From Escherichia phage Phi1: a stretch of DNA of 64,000 bases. Made by a program: the position numbers and the translations under genes. The notes beneath the pieces were generated by a model. It ran no database searches and had not been told where the DNA came from. It saw nothing but the letters and a program-made list of their open reading frames with translations. The first letter of the stretch is position 1. Every line of letters starts with the position of its first letter. Positions 238-64,000 of this stretch are shown here, in pieces. Where the stretch lies: sequence record EF437941; one strand, given 5' to 3'.

Positions 238-741
238 TCAAATAATTTTCACTGGAATACTATTAACAATCTTGTATTGTACTTGATTGTCAGACCCCCG
301 CCACGGCTTCTTCGTTGGCATATCTTTAATATAACGACCATCGATGAACATGTCAACTGATTCTACAATTTTTCTTTGCTCATCATTCAATTGGTCAAGG
401 GTATAACCGGACCATAGCCAAATATCTTTATTTGGCATCCATGATTTTACTTCATCGATGATCCGCTGTACACCCTTTAAATTGCGTTTATACAGTGGAT
501 CTCCACCTAAGAATGTTAGCCCCTGAATAAAATCAGGTCTAAGCAGATCCAGAATCAATCCCATTGTATCATCGGTGAATGGTTCCCCGTTCTTAGGATT
601 GAGTATACTGGAATTAAAGCAACCATCACATGCGTGTGAACATCCGGTAACGTAAAGGGAGACTCTCACTCCCTCACCGTTAACCATATCACAATCTTTA
701 ATATCGGCATAGCGTAGTTTGCCGTATGTATCAGAACTCAT
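238..741 (-). CDS. nrdG: anaerobic ribonucleotide reductase activating protein (radical SAM)
   Basis: CxxxCxxC-type Cys cluster (GCSHACDGCFN) near N-terminus; size and position downstream of nrdD as in T4; ATG at 741 (track start 747 is TTG). Confidence 0.85.
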   Translation of the reverse strand: MSSDTYGKLRYADIKDCDMVNGEGVRVSLYVTGCSHACDGCFNSSILNPKNGEPFTDDTMGLILDLLRPDFIQGLTFLGGDPLYKRNLKGVQRIIDEVKSWMPNKDIWLWSGYTLDQLNDEQRKIVESVDMFIDGRYIKDMPTKKPWRGSDNQVQYKIVNSIPVKII

Positions 742-887
742 ATTCAATTACCCCGAACTCGTTTACAATCTGCGCTTTATAGTAACCGCCGCGAGATGCC
801 AATAGATAAGCTGGGCTTAGGTATTCGTATTCACGGATTTCTACTTGTGCGTTTTCAGTTTCCCAAATCAGTAAAGTCCACATATTT
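738..887 (-). CDS. small hypothetical protein (~49 aa, below ORF-track cutoff)
   Basis: ATG preceded by GGAGAATCAAAT and a stem-loop promoter at ~926-954; overlaps the nrdG start; coordinates approximate. Confidence 0.35.
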
Positions 888-2146: not shown

Positions 2147-4009
2147 TTACATGTGCTTAACGCGGTTTACCATCTCGGAGTGTTTCCCGTGGTTAAATGG
2201 ACGCAGATCAACAGATCCAAGATATCCACTAACGCGACGGATAACATTCATTTTTTCCAGATTATCATTGCCGCAATCAGGACAAACAAAACCAGTCTCG
2301 GTCGCTCTCATTTCCTTAGTAGATCCGCATACATGACACACATCAGAAGGAGTATTAACACCGAAGTAGTGCAATTTATCCATTGCATAGTCTACTACAG
2401 TTTCAAGACCTTTCAGGTTGTTTTTCATGTCTGGGAACTCAACATAAGAGATCATGCCACCGGACGCCAGCCAGTGATAATCTTTCTCAAAGTCGATTTT
2501 CTCAAATGGAGTGACTTTCCGGTCTACGTCGAGGTGGAATGAGTTGGTGTACCAGTCTTTATCGGTAGCGCCCTTAACAATACCAAATTGCTCTCGGTCC
2601 AGTCGATTAAATCGATAGCAAAGGCTCTCGGCTGGCGTACCGTAAAGACTAAACCCAAGTCCGGTTTCGTCCTTCCATTTTTCAGTATAATGACGCAAGA
2701 TCTTAAGAATATGTTTACCGTATCGCTGCACATCTTCCGAATCAAACGGATGAACACCAAACAGGACGCTCAATACCTCATGTAAACCAATATATCCAAG
2801 AGAGATACTAGCGCGACCATCTTTCAGCACTTCAAAAATTTCATCGTTTTGATGAATACGGAAAAATGCACCTTCGGTATACAGTACAGGAGCAACATTG
2901 GCTTTAGCCCCTTTTAAAGCGTCTACGCGACTCATGAGCGCATCAAAGCAAATAGGCATACGATTAGCTAGCTCTTGTTCGAATAGCTCAATTCTGCGCA
3001 TTACAGACGCTTTACCAGCACGACGCGCGGCAATAAGGGCAATACGCGGAAGATTCAGAGTCACAACACCTAAGTTATTACGTCCGTCTAATACTTCTTC
3101 GCCTTTCTCATTATGCCACACACCCAGGAAGCTACGACAACCCATCGGGCTAACCGGAACACTAGATCCAGTGATACTACGGTTATTCTTCGCAGAGATA
3201 TAATCAGGGGTAAGACGCTTACTAGAACATTCCAATGCAAGTTGCTTAATGTCGTAGTTCGGATCTTCCGGGTTAAGGTTTAATCCTTCTTCTAAGAACA
3301 TCACCAGCTTAGGAAACACCGGAGTTATACCATCTTTACCTAAACCTTTAGTTCGAACTTTCAGGATCGCTTTCTGAATCAGTTTTTCTTCCCAGCTAGT
3401 ACCCATACCAAATGTTAAAGTCACAAAAGGCGTTTGACCGTTGGTGGAGAACAAAGTGTTGATTTCATATTCCAACGCTTGATACCCGTCTAGCGTTTCT
3501 TTTTCTGTCTTCTCTTGTGCATAGAGAGTATCAGCTTTGATTCCGTAGGTTTCGGCATCAGCAAGGTGTTTATGATATGTTTTCTCAACATACGGTGCTA
3601 ACACCTGATCGATGTTTGCAATTGTGGTCCCGCCATATTGATGACTTGCCACCTGTGCGATAATTTGAGCGGTTACAGCACAAGCAACACCGATCGATTT
3701 AGGACTTTCGATTTGTGCGCTACCCAATTTAAAACCATTCTCTAACATGTCTTTGAGATTAACAAGACAGCAGTTAGTAAACGGCATAGCGGGTGCATAA
3801 TCCATATCATGATAATGAATATCACCGTCTACATGCGCTTTATAGATGTGCTCAGGTAACACGGTTTTAGCAATCTGTTTAGACACAGCGCCAGCAATCA
3901 GATCTCGACGTGTCGGGAATGTTCGCGCGTCTTTGTTCGCGTTCTCTTTGCTTACTTCGTTTTCTTTACCCGTTGCGATCTCTGTAATGTCTTTGATTAG
4001 TTTTTCCAT
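2147..4009 (-). CDS. nrdD: anaerobic ribonucleoside-triphosphate reductase (class III, glycyl radical enzyme), uninterrupted
   Basis: 620 aa; C-terminal glycyl radical motif RVSGYLG and Cys-x2-Cys zinc ribbon (CHVCGS, CPDCG); single continuous ORF, no intron. Confidence 0.95.
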   Translation of the reverse strand: MEKLIKDITEIATGKENEVSKENANKDARTFPTRRDLIAGAVSKQIAKTVLPEHIYKAHVDGDIHYHDMDYAPAMPFTNCCLVNLKDMLENGFKLGSAQIESPKSIGVACAVTAQIIAQVASHQYGGTTIANIDQVLAPYVEKTYHKHLADAETYGIKADTLYAQEKTEKETLDGYQALEYEINTLFSTNGQTPFVTLTFGMGTSWEEKLIQKAILKVRTKGLGKDGITPVFPKLVMFLEEGLNLNPEDPNYDIKQLALECSSKRLTPDYISAKNNRSITGSSVPVSPMGCRSFLGVWHNEKGEEVLDGRNNLGVVTLNLPRIALIAARRAGKASVMRRIELFEQELANRMPICFDALMSRVDALKGAKANVAPVLYTEGAFFRIHQNDEIFEVLKDGRASISLGYIGLHEVLSVLFGVHPFDSEDVQRYGKHILKILRHYTEKWKDETGLGFSLYGTPAESLCYRFNRLDREQFGIVKGATDKDWYTNSFHLDVDRKVTPFEKIDFEKDYHWLASGGMISYVEFPDMKNNLKGLETVVDYAMDKLHYFGVNTPSDVCHVCGSTKEMRATETGFVCPDCGNDNLEKMNVIRRVSGYLGSVDLRPFNHGKHSEMVNRVKHM

Positions 4010-6419: not shown

Positions 6420-6692
6420 TCATTTCACTAATTGAACAGCACGAAACAGAATGCGGTCACACGGAAGCAGCATAAATTCCCAACGCGGATCAAAGTCTTT
6501 AGCGGTGTATGTTTTCCCATCAACAGAGATTTCACTTACATAACCAATAGGTGACACTTTAAGAACAGTAAATCCATTCTTGATTGCTTCGTAGGTATCT
6601 TTCAGACCTTCGTAGTCGTCCTCTAAGAAGTCTTTACGTGCTTGCTCAGATTTAAAAACATAGGCCACGCCAGCTTTAAACATCTTACGCAT
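6420..6692 (-). CDS. hypothetical protein (paralog family A, short)
   Basis: Track ORF N-terminus overlaps the promoter at ~6724-6752; internal ATG after AAGGAGAATCAACA taken as start. Confidence 0.5.
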   Translation of the reverse strand: MRKMFKAGVAYVFKSEQARKDFLEDDYEGLKDTYEAIKNGFTVLKVSPIGYVSEISVDGKTYTAKDFDPRWEFMLLPCDRILFRAVQLVK

Positions 6693-6723
6693 TGTTGATT
6701 CTCCTTCTTGATTAGATGGGAGC

Positions 6724-6752
6724 ATTTTACTACTCCCATTTCTTATTGTCAA
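6724..6752 (-). promoter_or_regulatory. early promoter with stem-loop (PeSL-like)
   Basis: TTGACA-N17-TAAAAT; inverted repeat GGGAGTAG/GCTCCC. Confidence 0.5.
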
Positions 6753-12988: not shown

Positions 12989-13765
12989 TTACACGCGAGC
13001 ACCGTAGATCGTGCCTACTTTATCCCAACGAGGGGCATTACCAGTAACGGCTTTACCAGCAGCACCACCGTTATATTCTGTACCGTTACCCTGAGTATTA
13101 CATCTTCCTCCAGCAGCACCAACGTTACCTCCAGCACCGCCTGTATATGCACTAAGAGACCCCGAACCAACAGATCCTTTACCTGGAGCGGAAATGGAGC
13201 CAGCGGTTGCACCAGAACCCATATTAGAGGAAGACCCACCAGCACCGAATGGGCGACCACCGCCACCACCAAATACTAGTATACCCCTGTTACCGCCACC
13301 ACCACCGCCACCGCCGCCAACGATAGCACCGTTATTTGTAATTCGTAGACGTGTACCGATAGCGTTATTGATTGCGTTTCCACCAGCAGCGCCAGCAGCG
13401 TTACTACCACCATTACCCCCACGTCCGTAGACAGTCACACCGGAGTTAATGATCAATGTTACATATTCGTTTGTTAACGAGCTAGGGAAGTCAAGACAAG
13501 GAACGCCAGTAGAATGAGAAACAATATTACCAGTGATAGTAATTACTACCGGAGTAGATCCTTGTGCTTTCATCCAGTTAATAAGAGTGTCTTTATTGTA
13601 AGAGTTACTAGCACCAATGCTATAATGAATCTCTTTAGAGCGTCCGACCATTGCCGACATATACGCCGGACGACCTAAGCGTACAGCTTGCATTGCGGCG
13701 CTCATCCACCGTTGACCAGTCTCGGACACCGCAGATGATCCTACCCATCCAGAAGATATTGCCAT
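12989..13765 (-). CDS. 38: glycine-rich protein, gp38-like receptor-recognising adhesin (T2-type architecture)
   Basis: N-terminus GWVGSSAVSETGQRWMS followed by several poly-Gly motifs separating short variable segments; about 258 aa; flanked by hairpins. Confidence 0.55.
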   Translation of the reverse strand: MAISSGWVGSSAVSETGQRWMSAAMQAVRLGRPAYMSAMVGRSKEIHYSIGASNSYNKDTLINWMKAQGSTPVVITITGNIVSHSTGVPCLDFPSSLTNEYVTLIINSGVTVYGRGGNGGSNAAGAAGGNAINNAIGTRLRITNNGAIVGGGGGGGGGNRGILVFGGGGGRPFGAGGSSSNMGSGATAGSISAPGKGSVGSGSLSAYTGGAGGNVGAAGGRCNTQGNGTEYNGGAAGKAVTGNAPRWDKVGTIYGARV

Positions 13766-20532: not shown

Positions 20533-21231
20533 CTAACCACGGGTATAGTGTTCCAGAACAACTGTCAGATGAATATATTCTAATAGATCTTTCCAAAAGT
20601 CAACATCTGGTTCTTCCGGCATACCGTTTTTCTTTGCCTCTTCACGAGCGAGTTTAACACGCTCGTAGAGATCTTTCAATTCTTCCCGCACATTATCAAA
20701 GGTTCTTTCTCCTAACTTACACGCTAAAATAGAAGAACGTCGCGCGAGCGGGAATTGTAGATCACCTGTCTGATAGATTTCAAGTAGCTGATAACCAACA
20801 CGCAGAGCATGAGAAAGATCTTTCCAGTTACTGAAATACTTTTCAGATTTGGCTACCTGTTTCTTGAGATAACCAGACAAACCCCACATCCCAACATGAT
20901 AGAATTTATCGCGATGTGTTCGGATGTATTCCCATTCTCTGGAGGATTCGATCAACATGTTACTAGGAGCGTGCACCATGTCAATAGCGCCGATATCACC
21001 TTTACATGCCAGATTGATAAACCGTTTTAGACTGAACATATTAACGTCAATATCGTCTTTGGTGTTCTTGATACCTTGACCGCTAGTGCTTTGGTCATAG
21101 TGTTCTTTCATCGATCCTAAGATAATTTCTTTCGCAGTCGGAACAAAGATACCACGATAATCTTTATCGGAATTTTCAGTATCAAGGCCGTATAAGTGAG
21201 ATCCGAAGACCATTTTAACCATTGTATGCAT
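20533..21231 (-). CDS. Pol-beta superfamily nucleotidyltransferase-like protein
   Basis: N-terminal GSHLYGLDTENSDKDYRGIF matches the hG[GS]x(9-13)[DE]h[DE]h nucleotidyltransferase signature. Confidence 0.6.
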   Translation of the reverse strand: MHTMVKMVFGSHLYGLDTENSDKDYRGIFVPTAKEIILGSMKEHYDQSTSGQGIKNTKDDIDVNMFSLKRFINLACKGDIGAIDMVHAPSNMLIESSREWEYIRTHRDKFYHVGMWGLSGYLKKQVAKSEKYFSNWKDLSHALRVGYQLLEIYQTGDLQFPLARRSSILACKLGERTFDNVREELKDLYERVKLAREEAKKNGMPEEPDVDFWKDLLEYIHLTVVLEHYTRG

Positions 21232-21273
21232 AATTAAACCCTCAGTTGATTAAGAGATTGCATCATATCATCA

Positions 21274-21308
21274 TAAAACGAAAAAGCCAACCCTTTTCGG
21301 ATTGGCTT
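21274..21308 (-). terminator. intrinsic terminator after the GrcA-like gene
   Basis: Hairpin AAGCCAATCCGAAAAGGGTTGGCTT plus TTTTTCGTTTT on the minus strand. Confidence 0.7.
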
Positions 21309-21317
21309 GATGAAAAA

Positions 21318-21734
21318 TTAGAGAGATTCGGTAAAGGTACGCGCGATAACGTCACGCTGCTGGTCTGGAGTCAGACTATTGAAGCGCACCGCGTAACCAG
21401 AAACGCGAATTGTAAGCTGCGGGTACTTCTCAGGATGTTCAACAGCGTCCAGCAACATTTCTCGTAACAATACGTTAACATTCAAATGCTGACCACCTTC
21501 GACAACCGGAGCACCATTATCTACAATGACAGGGCGGAAGCTAGTTGTGTGCAGTGCCAGCGAATCGACGTCTTCTGCGGTGATCACATGATCTTCTGCG
21601 AAAGTTTTACTAACAATTACTTTAGCGCCGATCAGTGCTTTCGGTTCGGATACCAGAATCATAGGCGCGAAGTGTCCACCAATAATAGTACCTTTATGCT
21701 CACCTTTCATGATTTGAATTGCTTTAAATTCCAT
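21318..21734 (-). CDS. autonomous glycyl radical cofactor (GrcA/YfiD-like)
   Basis: C-terminal [13 protein letters not shown] glycyl-radical motif; C-terminal ~60 aa closely resemble E. coli GrcA as recalled. Confidence 0.85.
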
Positions 21735-21744
21735 AATTCACCTC

Positions 21745-21870
21745 TTATAGATCAGGACGTTCGTCATTAACTTTTCCAACCAAAACACCATAGAGTTTAT
21801 CAGGTTGGACTTTACGATTCTTTTTAATTGTAGCACGAAATCGACGAGCTACGCTATCTTTATTTTTCAT
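21745..21870 (-). CDS. small basic hypothetical protein (~41 aa, below ORF-track cutoff)
   Basis: ATG overlaps the upstream stop (TAATG); ends just before the GrcA RBS. Confidence 0.35.
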   Translation of the reverse strand: MKNKDSVARRFRATIKKNRKVQPDKLYGVLVGKVNDERPDL

Positions 21871-22355
21871 TAGTTGATACCTAAGCCAATGAAAATAGGT
21901 TGGTCTTCTACATTACCCATCCCAACACTAAGTCGATTTACTTCTAAAAACTGCAATACGCTGTCAGTAAATCCGCGCATGGTAGTATCTAGGATAAAAA
22001 TTGTTTTGTCAAGACTACGACCTCGCCATGTGATCGGATTCAGGAAAGTTCGGATCGACGTACAATCTACATTTGAAATATTTACATTTTCACCGCGACC
22101 GCGATCTCGGATCGTTTTGACATGTTCCCGCGTTGTTGAAACGATAAAGACACTATAGCCTTTTCGCGTATAATGATCATATAACTTGATTGTAGCGTCT
22201 GTATGCCCTGTTTGACGGCCTAAATTGATTGAGACGATGGAATCTAGGTCATCAGCAAAATTGCGTCGCTTACGGCGTTCTATGATGCCATTTACGGCAG
22301 ATACACACGCAGCATAAATCAAATCTTTACTTTCTAATTTTACATCAATATTCAT
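21870..22355 (-). CDS. hypothetical protein
   Basis: Tiled ORF; GGAG RBS just downstream of a GC hairpin. Confidence 0.5.
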   Translation of the reverse strand: MNIDVKLESKDLIYAACVSAVNGIIERRKRRNFADDLDSIVSINLGRQTGHTDATIKLYDHYTRKGYSVFIVSTTREHVKTIRDRGRGENVNISNVDCTSIRTFLNPITWRGRSLDKTIFILDTTMRGFTDSVLQFLEVNRLSVGMGNVEDQPIFIGLGIN

Positions 22356-22417: not shown

Positions 22418-22807
22418 TTATTTTTGGTCTGGGTATTTGCTGTGTGGTAATTGTAGATGAGGACCATCTTTAAACGATACCCAATCCCCACCCCATTCAA
22501 CAGGAACACCCAATTCTCGACCAGCTTGTTTAAATGCATCAGCGATCATGCGGTAATATTTCATATTCCATGTATCTTTATCTTTCGGATACGCTACAAC
22601 GTCAACCGCGAAACCGTGAAGATGACGAGATTTCATAGTCTTAGATTTACCTTCCGCAACATATTTCTTTTGCGTTGCGAGACTACGCACACCTTCCGTA
22701 ATACCAAAATCGACCGGAGTCAGTTCTAACGCACGATGAACGACTTTTACCAGGTCTGGATGTACACCAACAAGCCGATCTTTGCTTCTTTGAGATAATT
22801 TAAACAT
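22418..22807 (-). CDS. endolysin, L-alanyl-D-glutamate peptidase (peptidase M15 family)
   Basis: SRHLHGFAVDV and WGGDWVSFKDGPHLQL motifs typical of Zn-dependent M15 phage endolysins. Confidence 0.8.
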   Translation of the reverse strand: MFKLSQRSKDRLVGVHPDLVKVVHRALELTPVDFGITEGVRSLATQKKYVAEGKSKTMKSRHLHGFAVDVVAYPKDKDTWNMKYYRMIADAFKQAGRELGVPVEWGGDWVSFKDGPHLQLPHSKYPDQK

Positions 22808-62601: not shown

Positions 62602-62634
62602 CTTTAGGTTAACAACAAACAAGGTTTAAAGAAC

Positions 62635-64000
62635 ATGAAAACTACCAAAGAACTGATGGAAAAATGGTCCCCGCTGCTGGAGAACGAAAAACTGCCGGAA
62701 ATCGCAACTGCGTCTAAGCAGAAACTGGTTGCTAAAATTCTGGAATCTCAGGAAGCGGATTTTGCTGTAGACCCGATCTATAAGGATGAAAAAGTTGTTG
62801 AAGCATTCGGTGGCTTTATCGCAGAAGCCGAAGTTGCTGGCGACCACGGTTATGACGCATCTCAGATCGCGGCTGGTCAGACTACCGGTGCAATCACCAA
62901 CGTAGGTCCGGCTGTTATCGGTATGGTTCGCCGTGCTATCCCTAACCTGATCGCATTTGATATTTGTGGTGTTCAGCCGATGAGCACTCCGACTAGCCAG
63001 ATCTTTGCAATCCGTTCTGTATACGGTCCTAACCCGCTGGCGTCTCAGGCTAAAGAAGCATTCCATCCGATGTATGCACCTGATGCGTTCCATAGCTCTC
63101 TTGCTGCTAAAGGTGCAGCTGTAGGTTCTCCGACCGGGACTCCGTTTGCTAAACTGGCAATCGGTACTCAGATTGAAGCGGGTGATATTGTACATCACAC
63201 CTTCGCAGAAACTGGCATTGCGTATCTGCAAAACGTTACCGCAGAACAAGTAACCCCGACCAAAGCTGGCAGCGAGTCCGAAGATGAAGTTGTCATGAAG
63301 CTGATGGAAGAAGGTAAACTGGCTGAAATCGCTTTCGGTATGGCGACTTCCATTGCCGAAATTCAGGAAGGCTTTAACGGTTCCAGCAATAACCCGTGGG
63401 CTGAAATGTCAATGCGTATTGACAAACAGGTTGTTGAAGCGAAATCTCGCCAACTGAAAGCCCGTTACTCTATCGAAGTTGCGCAGGATCTGCGTGCTGT
63501 ACACGGTATGGATGCTGACGCTGAACTGAATGCTATCCTGGCTAACGAAGTTCTGCTTGAAATCAACCGTGAAATCGTTGACGTCATCAACTTTACCGCT
63601 CAGGTTGGTAAGACTGGTATGACTCAGACCGTTGGTTCTAAAGCTGGTGTATTTGACCTGCAAGACCCGATCGATACTCGCGGTGCTCGTTGGGCTGGTG
63701 AATCCTTCAAATCTCTGATCTACCAGATCGACAAAGAAGCTGCTGAAATCGCTCGTCAGACTGGTCGCGGTGCTGGTAACTTTGTTATCGCTTCCCGTAA
63801 CGTTGTAAACATTCTTGCTTCTGCTGATCAGGGTATCAGTCTTGCTATGCAGGGTGCTGCAAAAGGTCTGAATACCGACACCACTAAAGCTGTGTTCGCT
63901 GGTGTTCTGGCTGGTAAGTACAAAGTGTTCATCGACCAGTATGCTCGTCAAGACTACTTCACCGTAGGTTACAAAGGCGACAACGAAATGGATGCTGGTA
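62635..64000 (+). CDS. 23: major capsid protein gp23 (5' portion, continues past window end)
   Basis: Near-identity to T4 gp23 over long stretches as recalled (GVQPM, NPWAEM, DKQVVEAKSRQLKA); not in ORF track because there is no stop in the window. Confidence 0.95.
   Translation, partial: MKTTKELMEKWSPLLENEKLPEIATASKQKLVAKILESQEADFAVDPIYKDEKVVEAFGGFIAEAEVAGDHGYDASQIAAGQTTGAITNVGPAVIGMVRRAIPNLIAFDICGVQPMSTPTSQIFAIRSVYGPNPLASQAKEAFHPMYAPDAFHSSLAAKGAAVGSPTGTPFAKLAIGTQIEAGDIVHHTFAETGIAYLQNVTAEQVTPTKAGSESEDEVVMKLMEEGKLAEIAFGMATSIAEIQEGFNGSSNNPWAEMSMRIDKQVVEAKSRQLKARYSIEVAQDLRAVHGMDADAELNAILANEVLLEINREIVDVINFTAQVGKTGMTQTVGSKAGVFDLQDPIDTRGARWAGESFKSLIYQIDKEAAEIARQTGRGAGNFVIASRNVVNILASADQGISLAMQGAAKGLNTDTTKAVFAGVLAGKYKVFIDQYARQDYFTVGYKGDNEMDAG

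Follow-up and report, generated by a model that had tools for sequence, protein, structure and literature searches.

Among the small glycyl radical proteins that serve as 'spare parts' for pyruvate formate-lyase (PFL), the account in PMC8683613 names two as the only validated examples, E. coli YfiD (GrcA) and the Y06I protein of phage T4. As summarized there from Wagner et al. (2001, BBRC 285:456), both proteins have their radical installed by the PFL activase, and both bind oxygen-cleaved PFL and bring back its activity. YfiD's N-terminal half, according to the same account, is required for the binding of cleaved PFL and for efficient activation. Nolan et al. (2006, PMC1524935) reported that vs.6, the gene for Y06I, is Gly_radical-positive in six of six T4-like genomes, RB49 included, and guessed that its product has a role in nucleotide metabolism. 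A literature search on the physiology of phage GrcA proteins found nothing beyond Wagner et al. 2001, its citations and Nolan et al. 2006, and no demonstration of a benefit to T4 was found.

Here we analyze the vs.6 gene in a 64,000-nucleotide stretch of Escherichia phage Phi1 (EF437941), hereafter the window. A preliminary description had called the product a GrcA/YfiD-like glycyl radical cofactor with a host-like C-terminus, had pointed to Y06I as a YfiD-like protein of T4, had left open whether the likeness to the host protein reflects recent acquisition or strong constraint, and had joined the gene to nrdD and nrdG as a glycyl radical trio and a toolkit for anaerobic growth.

Results

The window encodes a Vs.6 orthologue

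The gene occupies 21318..21734 on the minus strand as an ATG-to-stop ORF of 138 amino acids plus the stop codon. The surrounding 2.5 kb is 97-98.5% identical in nucleotide sequence to GEC-3S, RB49 and about 55 further records, and the window comes from an RB49-like member of the T-even phages, genus Krischvirus. The encoded protein has 99% amino acid identity with RB49 Vs.6, and on this sequence evidence the ORF is the orthologue of RB49 vs.6. Gene order in RB49 and the window runs regB, small ORFs, nrdC.11, vs.6, a 41-aa ORF and vs.8, and in T4 it runs regB, vs.3-5, vs.6, vs.7 and vs.8; the synteny of regB, vs.6 and vs.8 is thus common to both.

The protein has two parts. The C-terminal glycyl radical domain (residues 78-138; 21321..21503, minus strand) is the equivalent of PflB residues 699-759, and Pfam model Gly_radical (PF01228) matches residues 78-119 at 61.3 bits, where 22.2 is the cut-off. 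Over these last 61 residues the protein is identical to E. coli K-12 GrcA at 56 positions (92%), to T4 Vs.6 at 89% and to PflB at 82%. The RVSGYAV glycine loop is the same in all four proteins. Within it, Gly113 (codon 21396..21398, minus strand), which sequence and alignment predict to be the radical glycine, aligns with PflB Gly734 and GrcA Gly102 and is invariant in 33 of 33 aligned homologues. The near-identity to enterobacterial GrcA claimed for the last 60 or so residues is therefore borne out, and the peptide quoted in support of it is present; the one letter that had been left unread there is Asp123, where GrcA has Glu. A PflB-like signature within this domain was considered and dropped, since bacterial GrcAs often have L95 and E99 as well, which leaves M93 alone as PflB-specific.

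Comparisons over the full protein support the same identification. Among solved structures the best matches are the NMR structure of YfiD/GrcA (6owr, E = 5.8e-33) and PflB (E = 5.5e-27). The PHROGs family phrog_1209 is matched over its full length (window residues 3-138 against profile positions 1-121 of 121, E = 3.4e-51), and BLASTP aligns the protein with T4 Vs.6 at 58% over 137 positions (E = 4e-47). The pairwise alignments with GrcA and Y06I take in the whole domain, so the similarity reaches well past the short glycyl radical motif, and the GrcA/YfiD-like identification holds; Y06I, the T4 protein that had been invoked, is indeed Vs.6, the characterized homologue. The top NCBIfam model is TIGR04365 (GrcA), which scores 133.8 bits over residues 37-138 (profile positions 28-126), ahead of the GrcA3, PflB and GrcA2 models. 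This score lies below the equivalog cut-off of 170 bits, as does that of T4 Y06I (151.1), and E. coli GrcA reaches 234; because a validated spare part lies on the lower side, the cut-off splits bacterial GrcA from the phage versions and does not separate functions. We place the window protein with the spare-part proteins of GrcA type, in their phage Vs.6 branch, and do not class it as an equivalog of bacterial GrcA. It has the structural hallmarks of the GrcA kind: at 138 aa it lies within the size range of the kind (~120-140 aa) and stands alone, it carries PF01228 at its C-terminus, and that C-terminus is PflB-like with RVSGYAV.

The N-terminal half (residues 1-77; 21504..21734, minus strand), a putative recognition or docking region of phage type, is a likely distant homologue of the GrcA N-terminus. 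It is about 27-35% identical to the validated pair. Among aligned residues, 27 of 58 are shared with T4 Vs.6 and 21 of 64 with GrcA, and Q7, I8, K43 and R67 are near-invariant among phage and bacterial homologues. Homology of this half to the GrcA N-terminal region is likely on these alignments. An AlphaFold2 model of the protein (mean pLDDT 78.8) places Gly113 in a beta-hairpin between two helices, and its C-terminal half matches 6owr and the PFL structures 1cm5 and 2pfl. The N-terminal half is modelled as four short strands with pLDDT of about 75-86; Foldseek returned for it only non-significant KOW/ribosomal-protein-like matches (E > 0.5, probability at most 0.35), and for this reason we claim no fold for it.

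How does the protein compare with its three best-described relatives? T4 Vs.6 is orthologous, has the syntenic position and the two-part architecture, and shares the N-terminal motifs KA(I/Y)QI..G.HKGTI and A(K/R)(V/I)IVSKTF.ED. The window protein differs from it in being 18 residues longer; its N-terminal half bears an insertion with some resemblance to the F/W-LL-SE segment of GrcA. E. coli GrcA/YfiD (6owr; TIGR04365; IPR011140) is likewise small and stand-alone, with the same RVSGYAV loop and terminal helix, but it is bacterial and the window protein is phage-encoded, and their N-terminal halves are weakly alike; residues 1-60 of YfiD are disordered in solution by NMR, whereas AlphaFold2 predicts beta-strands of moderate confidence for the N-terminal half of the window protein. 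The C-terminal domain of PflB (1h16/2pfl, residues ~699-759) shares the Gly734 loop and the predicted fold. The catalytic barrel of PflB, some 700 residues with Cys418/Cys419, is absent from the window protein, which is therefore no enzyme on its own.

A vs.6-type gene is present in 1579 phage records, T5-like phages among the carriers. Many GenBank records already name the gene 'autonomous glycyl radical cofactor', and some phage records have '2-ketobutyrate formate-lyase'. The identification thus holds but was known and annotated beforehand, and the gene is an ordinary one for T4-like phages.

Neighbouring genes and expression signals

A Shine-Dalgarno sequence, GAGGTG (21739..21744, minus strand), is read directly 4 nt 5' of the vs.6 ATG. 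Upstream in the same orientation lie the 41-aa ORF (21745-21870, minus strand) and vs.8 (21870-22355, minus strand), whose PHROGs matches are phrog_13848 and phrog_1488. A strong intrinsic terminator with a 10-bp stem, a 5-nt loop and a T-run (21274..21308, minus strand) starts 9 nt past the vs.6 stop codon and ends the vs.8-vs.6 transcription unit; by terminator scan and folding it has -15.6 kcal/mol and z = -4.5, and it is also annotated in the GEC-3S and G2248 records. The next gene 3' of vs.6 encodes an nrdC.11-like nucleotidyltransferase (20533..21231, minus strand; Pfam RlaP and phrog_388). The vs.6/nrdC.11 junction of the window is an 'empty site', without a homing endonuclease gene.

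The late-promoter sequence TATAAATA does not occur on the minus strand within 4.8 kb upstream of vs.6. Sigma-70-like matches upstream of the gene number 12, against 7.6 +/- 2.7 expected in shuffled sequence; as this is no excess, we assign no promoter to vs.6. The endolysin gene of this neighbourhood (22418-22807, minus strand) is, according to the annotation of relatives, of the Peptidase_M15_4 type (L-alanyl-D-glutamate peptidase) and not a T4 e-type lysozyme.

Purifying selection on the host-like domain

Is the likeness to the host protein a sign of recent capture or of selection? Over the 61 codons of the domain, DNA identity to grcA is 73-74% and third-position identity is 44%, and nearly all differences in the nucleotide alignment are at third codon positions. 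Against grcA, synonymous change has reached saturation (pS 0.79) and nonsynonymous change is low (pN 0.083); taking grcA and pflB together, pS is 0.69-0.79 and pN 0.08-0.13, and the values against T4 vs.6 are similar to those for grcA. The closest bacterial grcA locus has 80% nucleotide identity and 57% at third positions among the best 80 compared of at least 577 loci, all from GTDB representatives with one genome per species, so that an unsampled donor is possible. The copies of T5, Aeromonas phage 31.2, Klebsiella phage Miro and the window share 28-51% of third positions with one another, again at saturation, and despite this saturation 25 residues are invariant over the 33 aligned proteins. 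Within Krischvirus, vs.6 is conserved at 95-99% of nucleotides in 40 records. Against absolute constraint, the C-terminal domains of close Krischvirus relatives are 69-77% identical to GrcA.

The base composition of the gene is mildly shifted. Its GC content of 0.464, against 0.404 +/- 0.031, is the third highest among the 98 ORFs of the window, and by codon usage it ranks in the 5th percentile on the E. coli-like side, with a small set of six E. coli genes as the reference. The codon-usage comparison with the window's ORFs thus gives only a mild host-like tendency, and this agrees with an old host origin or with an expression-related bias but not with recent transfer. Two other minus-strand ORFs, at 62626-63195 and 12989-13765, are the richest in GC within the window (0.49-0.50); the former, whose GC3 is 0.61 where the window averages 0.36, is a stronger compositional outlier than vs.6, and the latter is by position the gp38-like adhesin of RB49.

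Of the two explanations that had been offered for the host-like C-terminus, constraint stands and recent acquisition falls. The data favour strong purifying selection as the reason for the likeness; recent acquisition from the host is rejected on the distribution of differences over codon positions, on the nucleotide alignment and on the distance to the best bacterial locus within the set compared. As a separate observation, Klebsiella phage JD18 has 89% nucleotide identity to a Pseudocitrobacter grcA; K. pneumoniae grcA lay outside the compared set of loci.

The same domain is exchanged in related phages

In T4 (NC_000866) a block of about 180 nt in vs.6 (6558-6740, minus strand) has 97% nucleotide identity to the E. 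coli K-12 grcA locus (locus positions 1067-1252), with a dS of 0.07, in contrast to the 73-74% and the saturated synonymous sites of the window gene. The block covers exactly the glycyl radical domain and has sharp borders with phage-like AT-rich flanks, and along T4 vs.6 GC3 rises from 0.19 for the N-terminal part to 0.41 for the C-terminal one. A grcA-like block at 95-99% identity is found in 629 phage records. These alignments indicate a recent gene conversion between phage and host in the Tequatrovirus-type lineage, unlike the window.

Krischvirus presents a different kind of mosaic at the same locus. In seven of seven relatives compared, the upstream DNA and codons 1-69 of vs.6 are 96-100% identical to the window in nucleotide sequence. 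In six phages, JSE, MIZ4, G37-3, FL04, phiS and JK32, identity to the window falls to 53-79% over the 3' half of vs.6 (70-80% in amino acids), and each of these has a gene for an HNH homing endonuclease directly 3' of vs.6, before the nucleotidyltransferase gene; the HNH genes are of two unrelated types. The window, RB49 and G2248 have no endonuclease gene 3' of vs.6, and G2248 keeps a short divergent patch that looks like the remnant of a conversion. Compared with the alleles of JSE and the others, that of the window is endonuclease-free and the most GrcA-like. Free-standing endonucleases of T4-like phages are known to home with co-conversion of a flanking gene, and the pattern of identities would find its natural explanation in such homing and co-conversion at vs.6.

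The RB49 assembly OZ035808.1, also of Krischvirus, was considered as a counterexample to the association between endonuclease and divergence and was rejected as such: its extra 620 nt hold a different HNH gene that is not beside vs.6. That gene, encoding a 191-aa HNH/AP2-type endonuclease, lies between vs.8 and the endolysin gene of M15-peptidase type (locus positions 2019-2594); its insertion site corresponds to about 22434-22457 of the window, which lacks the gene. The adjacent C-terminal end of the endolysin in this assembly is locally diverged, at 95.5% nucleotide identity against 98.4% elsewhere, which makes this a second case of the pattern close to vs.6.

The anaerobic ribonucleotide reductase genes

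Both nrdD and nrdG are present in the window. The former (2147..4009, minus strand) encodes an anaerobic ribonucleotide reductase of 620 aa that contains RRVSGYLG and scores 582.9 bits with PF13597 and 875 bits with NF006732. The latter (238..747, minus strand) encodes the NrdD activase with a CSHACDGC cluster motif; it scores 166.4 bits with TIGR02491, above the cut-off of 126, and 27.5 bits with the PFLA model, far from the cut-off of 231.75. The longest nrdG ORF begins at TTG (MNMSS...) and RB49 annotates a 168-codon gene; the in-frame ATG two codons past the TTG is the more likely start.

The two genes lie 17.3 kb (nrdD) and 20.6 kb (nrdG) from vs.6, and dozens of ORFs stand in the interval. 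The alignment of Vs.6 with the phage NrdD is limited to RVSGY (5/5), with a BLASTP E of 1.7. We accordingly rejected Vs.6 as a spare part for NrdD, since similarity to the NrdD C-terminus at the level of the domain is absent.

Discussion

What would such a protein do for an RB49-like phage? We propose that it is very probably a Krischvirus spare part of the GrcA/YfiD kind, which re-arms oxygen-cleaved host PflB via host PflA. By homology with Y06I and YfiD, the RB49-type protein would act as they do, with PflB and PflA of the host as its partners; the identity of its glycine loop to that of PflB points to the same two proteins. In this scheme the leftward early-gene block would supply Vs.6 soon after infection begins. 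Trace oxygen would cleave host PflB at the Gly734 radical, and with host protein synthesis off during infection no new PflB or GrcA would be made. The N-terminal half of Vs.6 would help it to dock on cleaved PflB, its C-terminal domain would substitute for the lost PflB residues ~699-759, and host PflA would install the radical at Gly113 within the RVSGYAV loop, whereupon PFL activity would return. The output of acetyl-CoA, ATP and formate would then continue in the microaerobic or anaerobic infected cell, and a plausible benefit to the phage is the sustained production of these three. Every one of 5426 complete E. coli genomes holds matching pflB/grcA-type loci, so a partner is always present; the median is three loci per genome, consistent with pflB, grcA and tdcE, the last of which we infer to be the third.

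The inferred tdcE locus invites a different assignment, in which Vs.6 acts chiefly on TdcE (2-ketobutyrate formate-lyase), or, as a decoy, titrates PflA or sits on PFL and thereby redirects host fermentation instead of repairing it. The label '2-ketobutyrate formate-lyase' in some phage records agrees with this, as does a phage-specific N-terminal half strongly unlike that of GrcA. We nevertheless consider the assignment unlikely: the T4 orthologue is described in PMC8683613 as reconstituting PFL activity and not as inhibiting it, and the domain is nearer to GrcA and PflB than a mere PflA decoy needs, with residues beyond the glycine loop conserved too. Rescue of TdcE, for its part, would be a variant of the spare-part mechanism and not a separate one. 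Still less probable, to the point of being very improbable, is a place for Vs.6 in a toolkit autonomous to the phage, as a spare part or radical reservoir that NrdG activates for oxygen-damaged NrdD in aid of dNTP synthesis. The three genes do share a genome and a strand, each of their products either has an RVSGY glycine loop or acts on one, and a role in nucleotide metabolism was the speculation of Nolan et al. (PMC1524935). A spare part must, however, copy the domain that it replaces, and what Vs.6 copies is PflB, with the whole 61-residue domain 82% identical, whereas its likeness to NrdD is RVSGY alone; NrdD is thus not its target. NrdG is a clear NrdG equivalog and not a PFLA, the genes stand 17-21 kb apart, T5-like phages carry the gene too, and T4 Y06I works with PFL-AE and PFL by the account in PMC8683613. 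The trio of the preliminary description is consequently a thematic grouping and not a functional unit: both reductase genes are there, and all three genes serve growth at low oxygen, but the single toolkit resolves into what would be two independent devices, NrdD/NrdG for dNTP synthesis and Vs.6 plugging into the PFL of the host.

Least probable of all is that the gene is a recently captured host fragment, a 'moron' or decaying passenger without a selected function here. It could draw on the GC rank and E. coli-like codon usage of vs.6 and on the block of 97% nucleotide identity to E. coli grcA that exists in T4-type phages. In the window, the saturated synonymous sites and low pN against grcA and pflB contradict it, as does the 80% nucleotide identity of the best bacterial locus (among the best 80 of at least 577). 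The ORF is moreover intact, with a ribosome binding site and a terminator, is conserved at 95-99% in the 40 Krischvirus records and is syntenic across T4-like genera. The spare part for host PflB thus remains our preferred function for Vs.6.

The comparison among phages raises a further possibility, to which we give a little less than an even chance. The DNA of the vs.6 glycyl radical domain may be a recurrent recombination module, overwritten by grcA in T4-type phages and swapped together with either HNH gene in Krischvirus; the highly conserved 'empty-site' 3' half of vs.6 in the window, or the vs.6/nrdC.11 junction (together 21232-21503), would then be the likely homing target. If this is true, an auxiliary metabolic gene that is kept host-matched by gene conversion would also be a landing pad for selfish endonucleases.

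For the biology of these phages, the principle has been understood since 2001, and the window adds nothing conceptually new to it. What is added here is that purifying selection explains the likeness to the host protein, and that the gene is to be grouped with PflB and PflA of the host and not with NrdD and NrdG of the phage. The two kinds of modular exchange at the vs.6 locus in related phages are the only mildly new material and may merit comparative study. RB49-like phages, as T4, carry a protein that probably sustains host fermentation through pyruvate formate-lyase after oxygen damage, and as an auxiliary metabolic function this suits the gut with its fluctuating oxygen.
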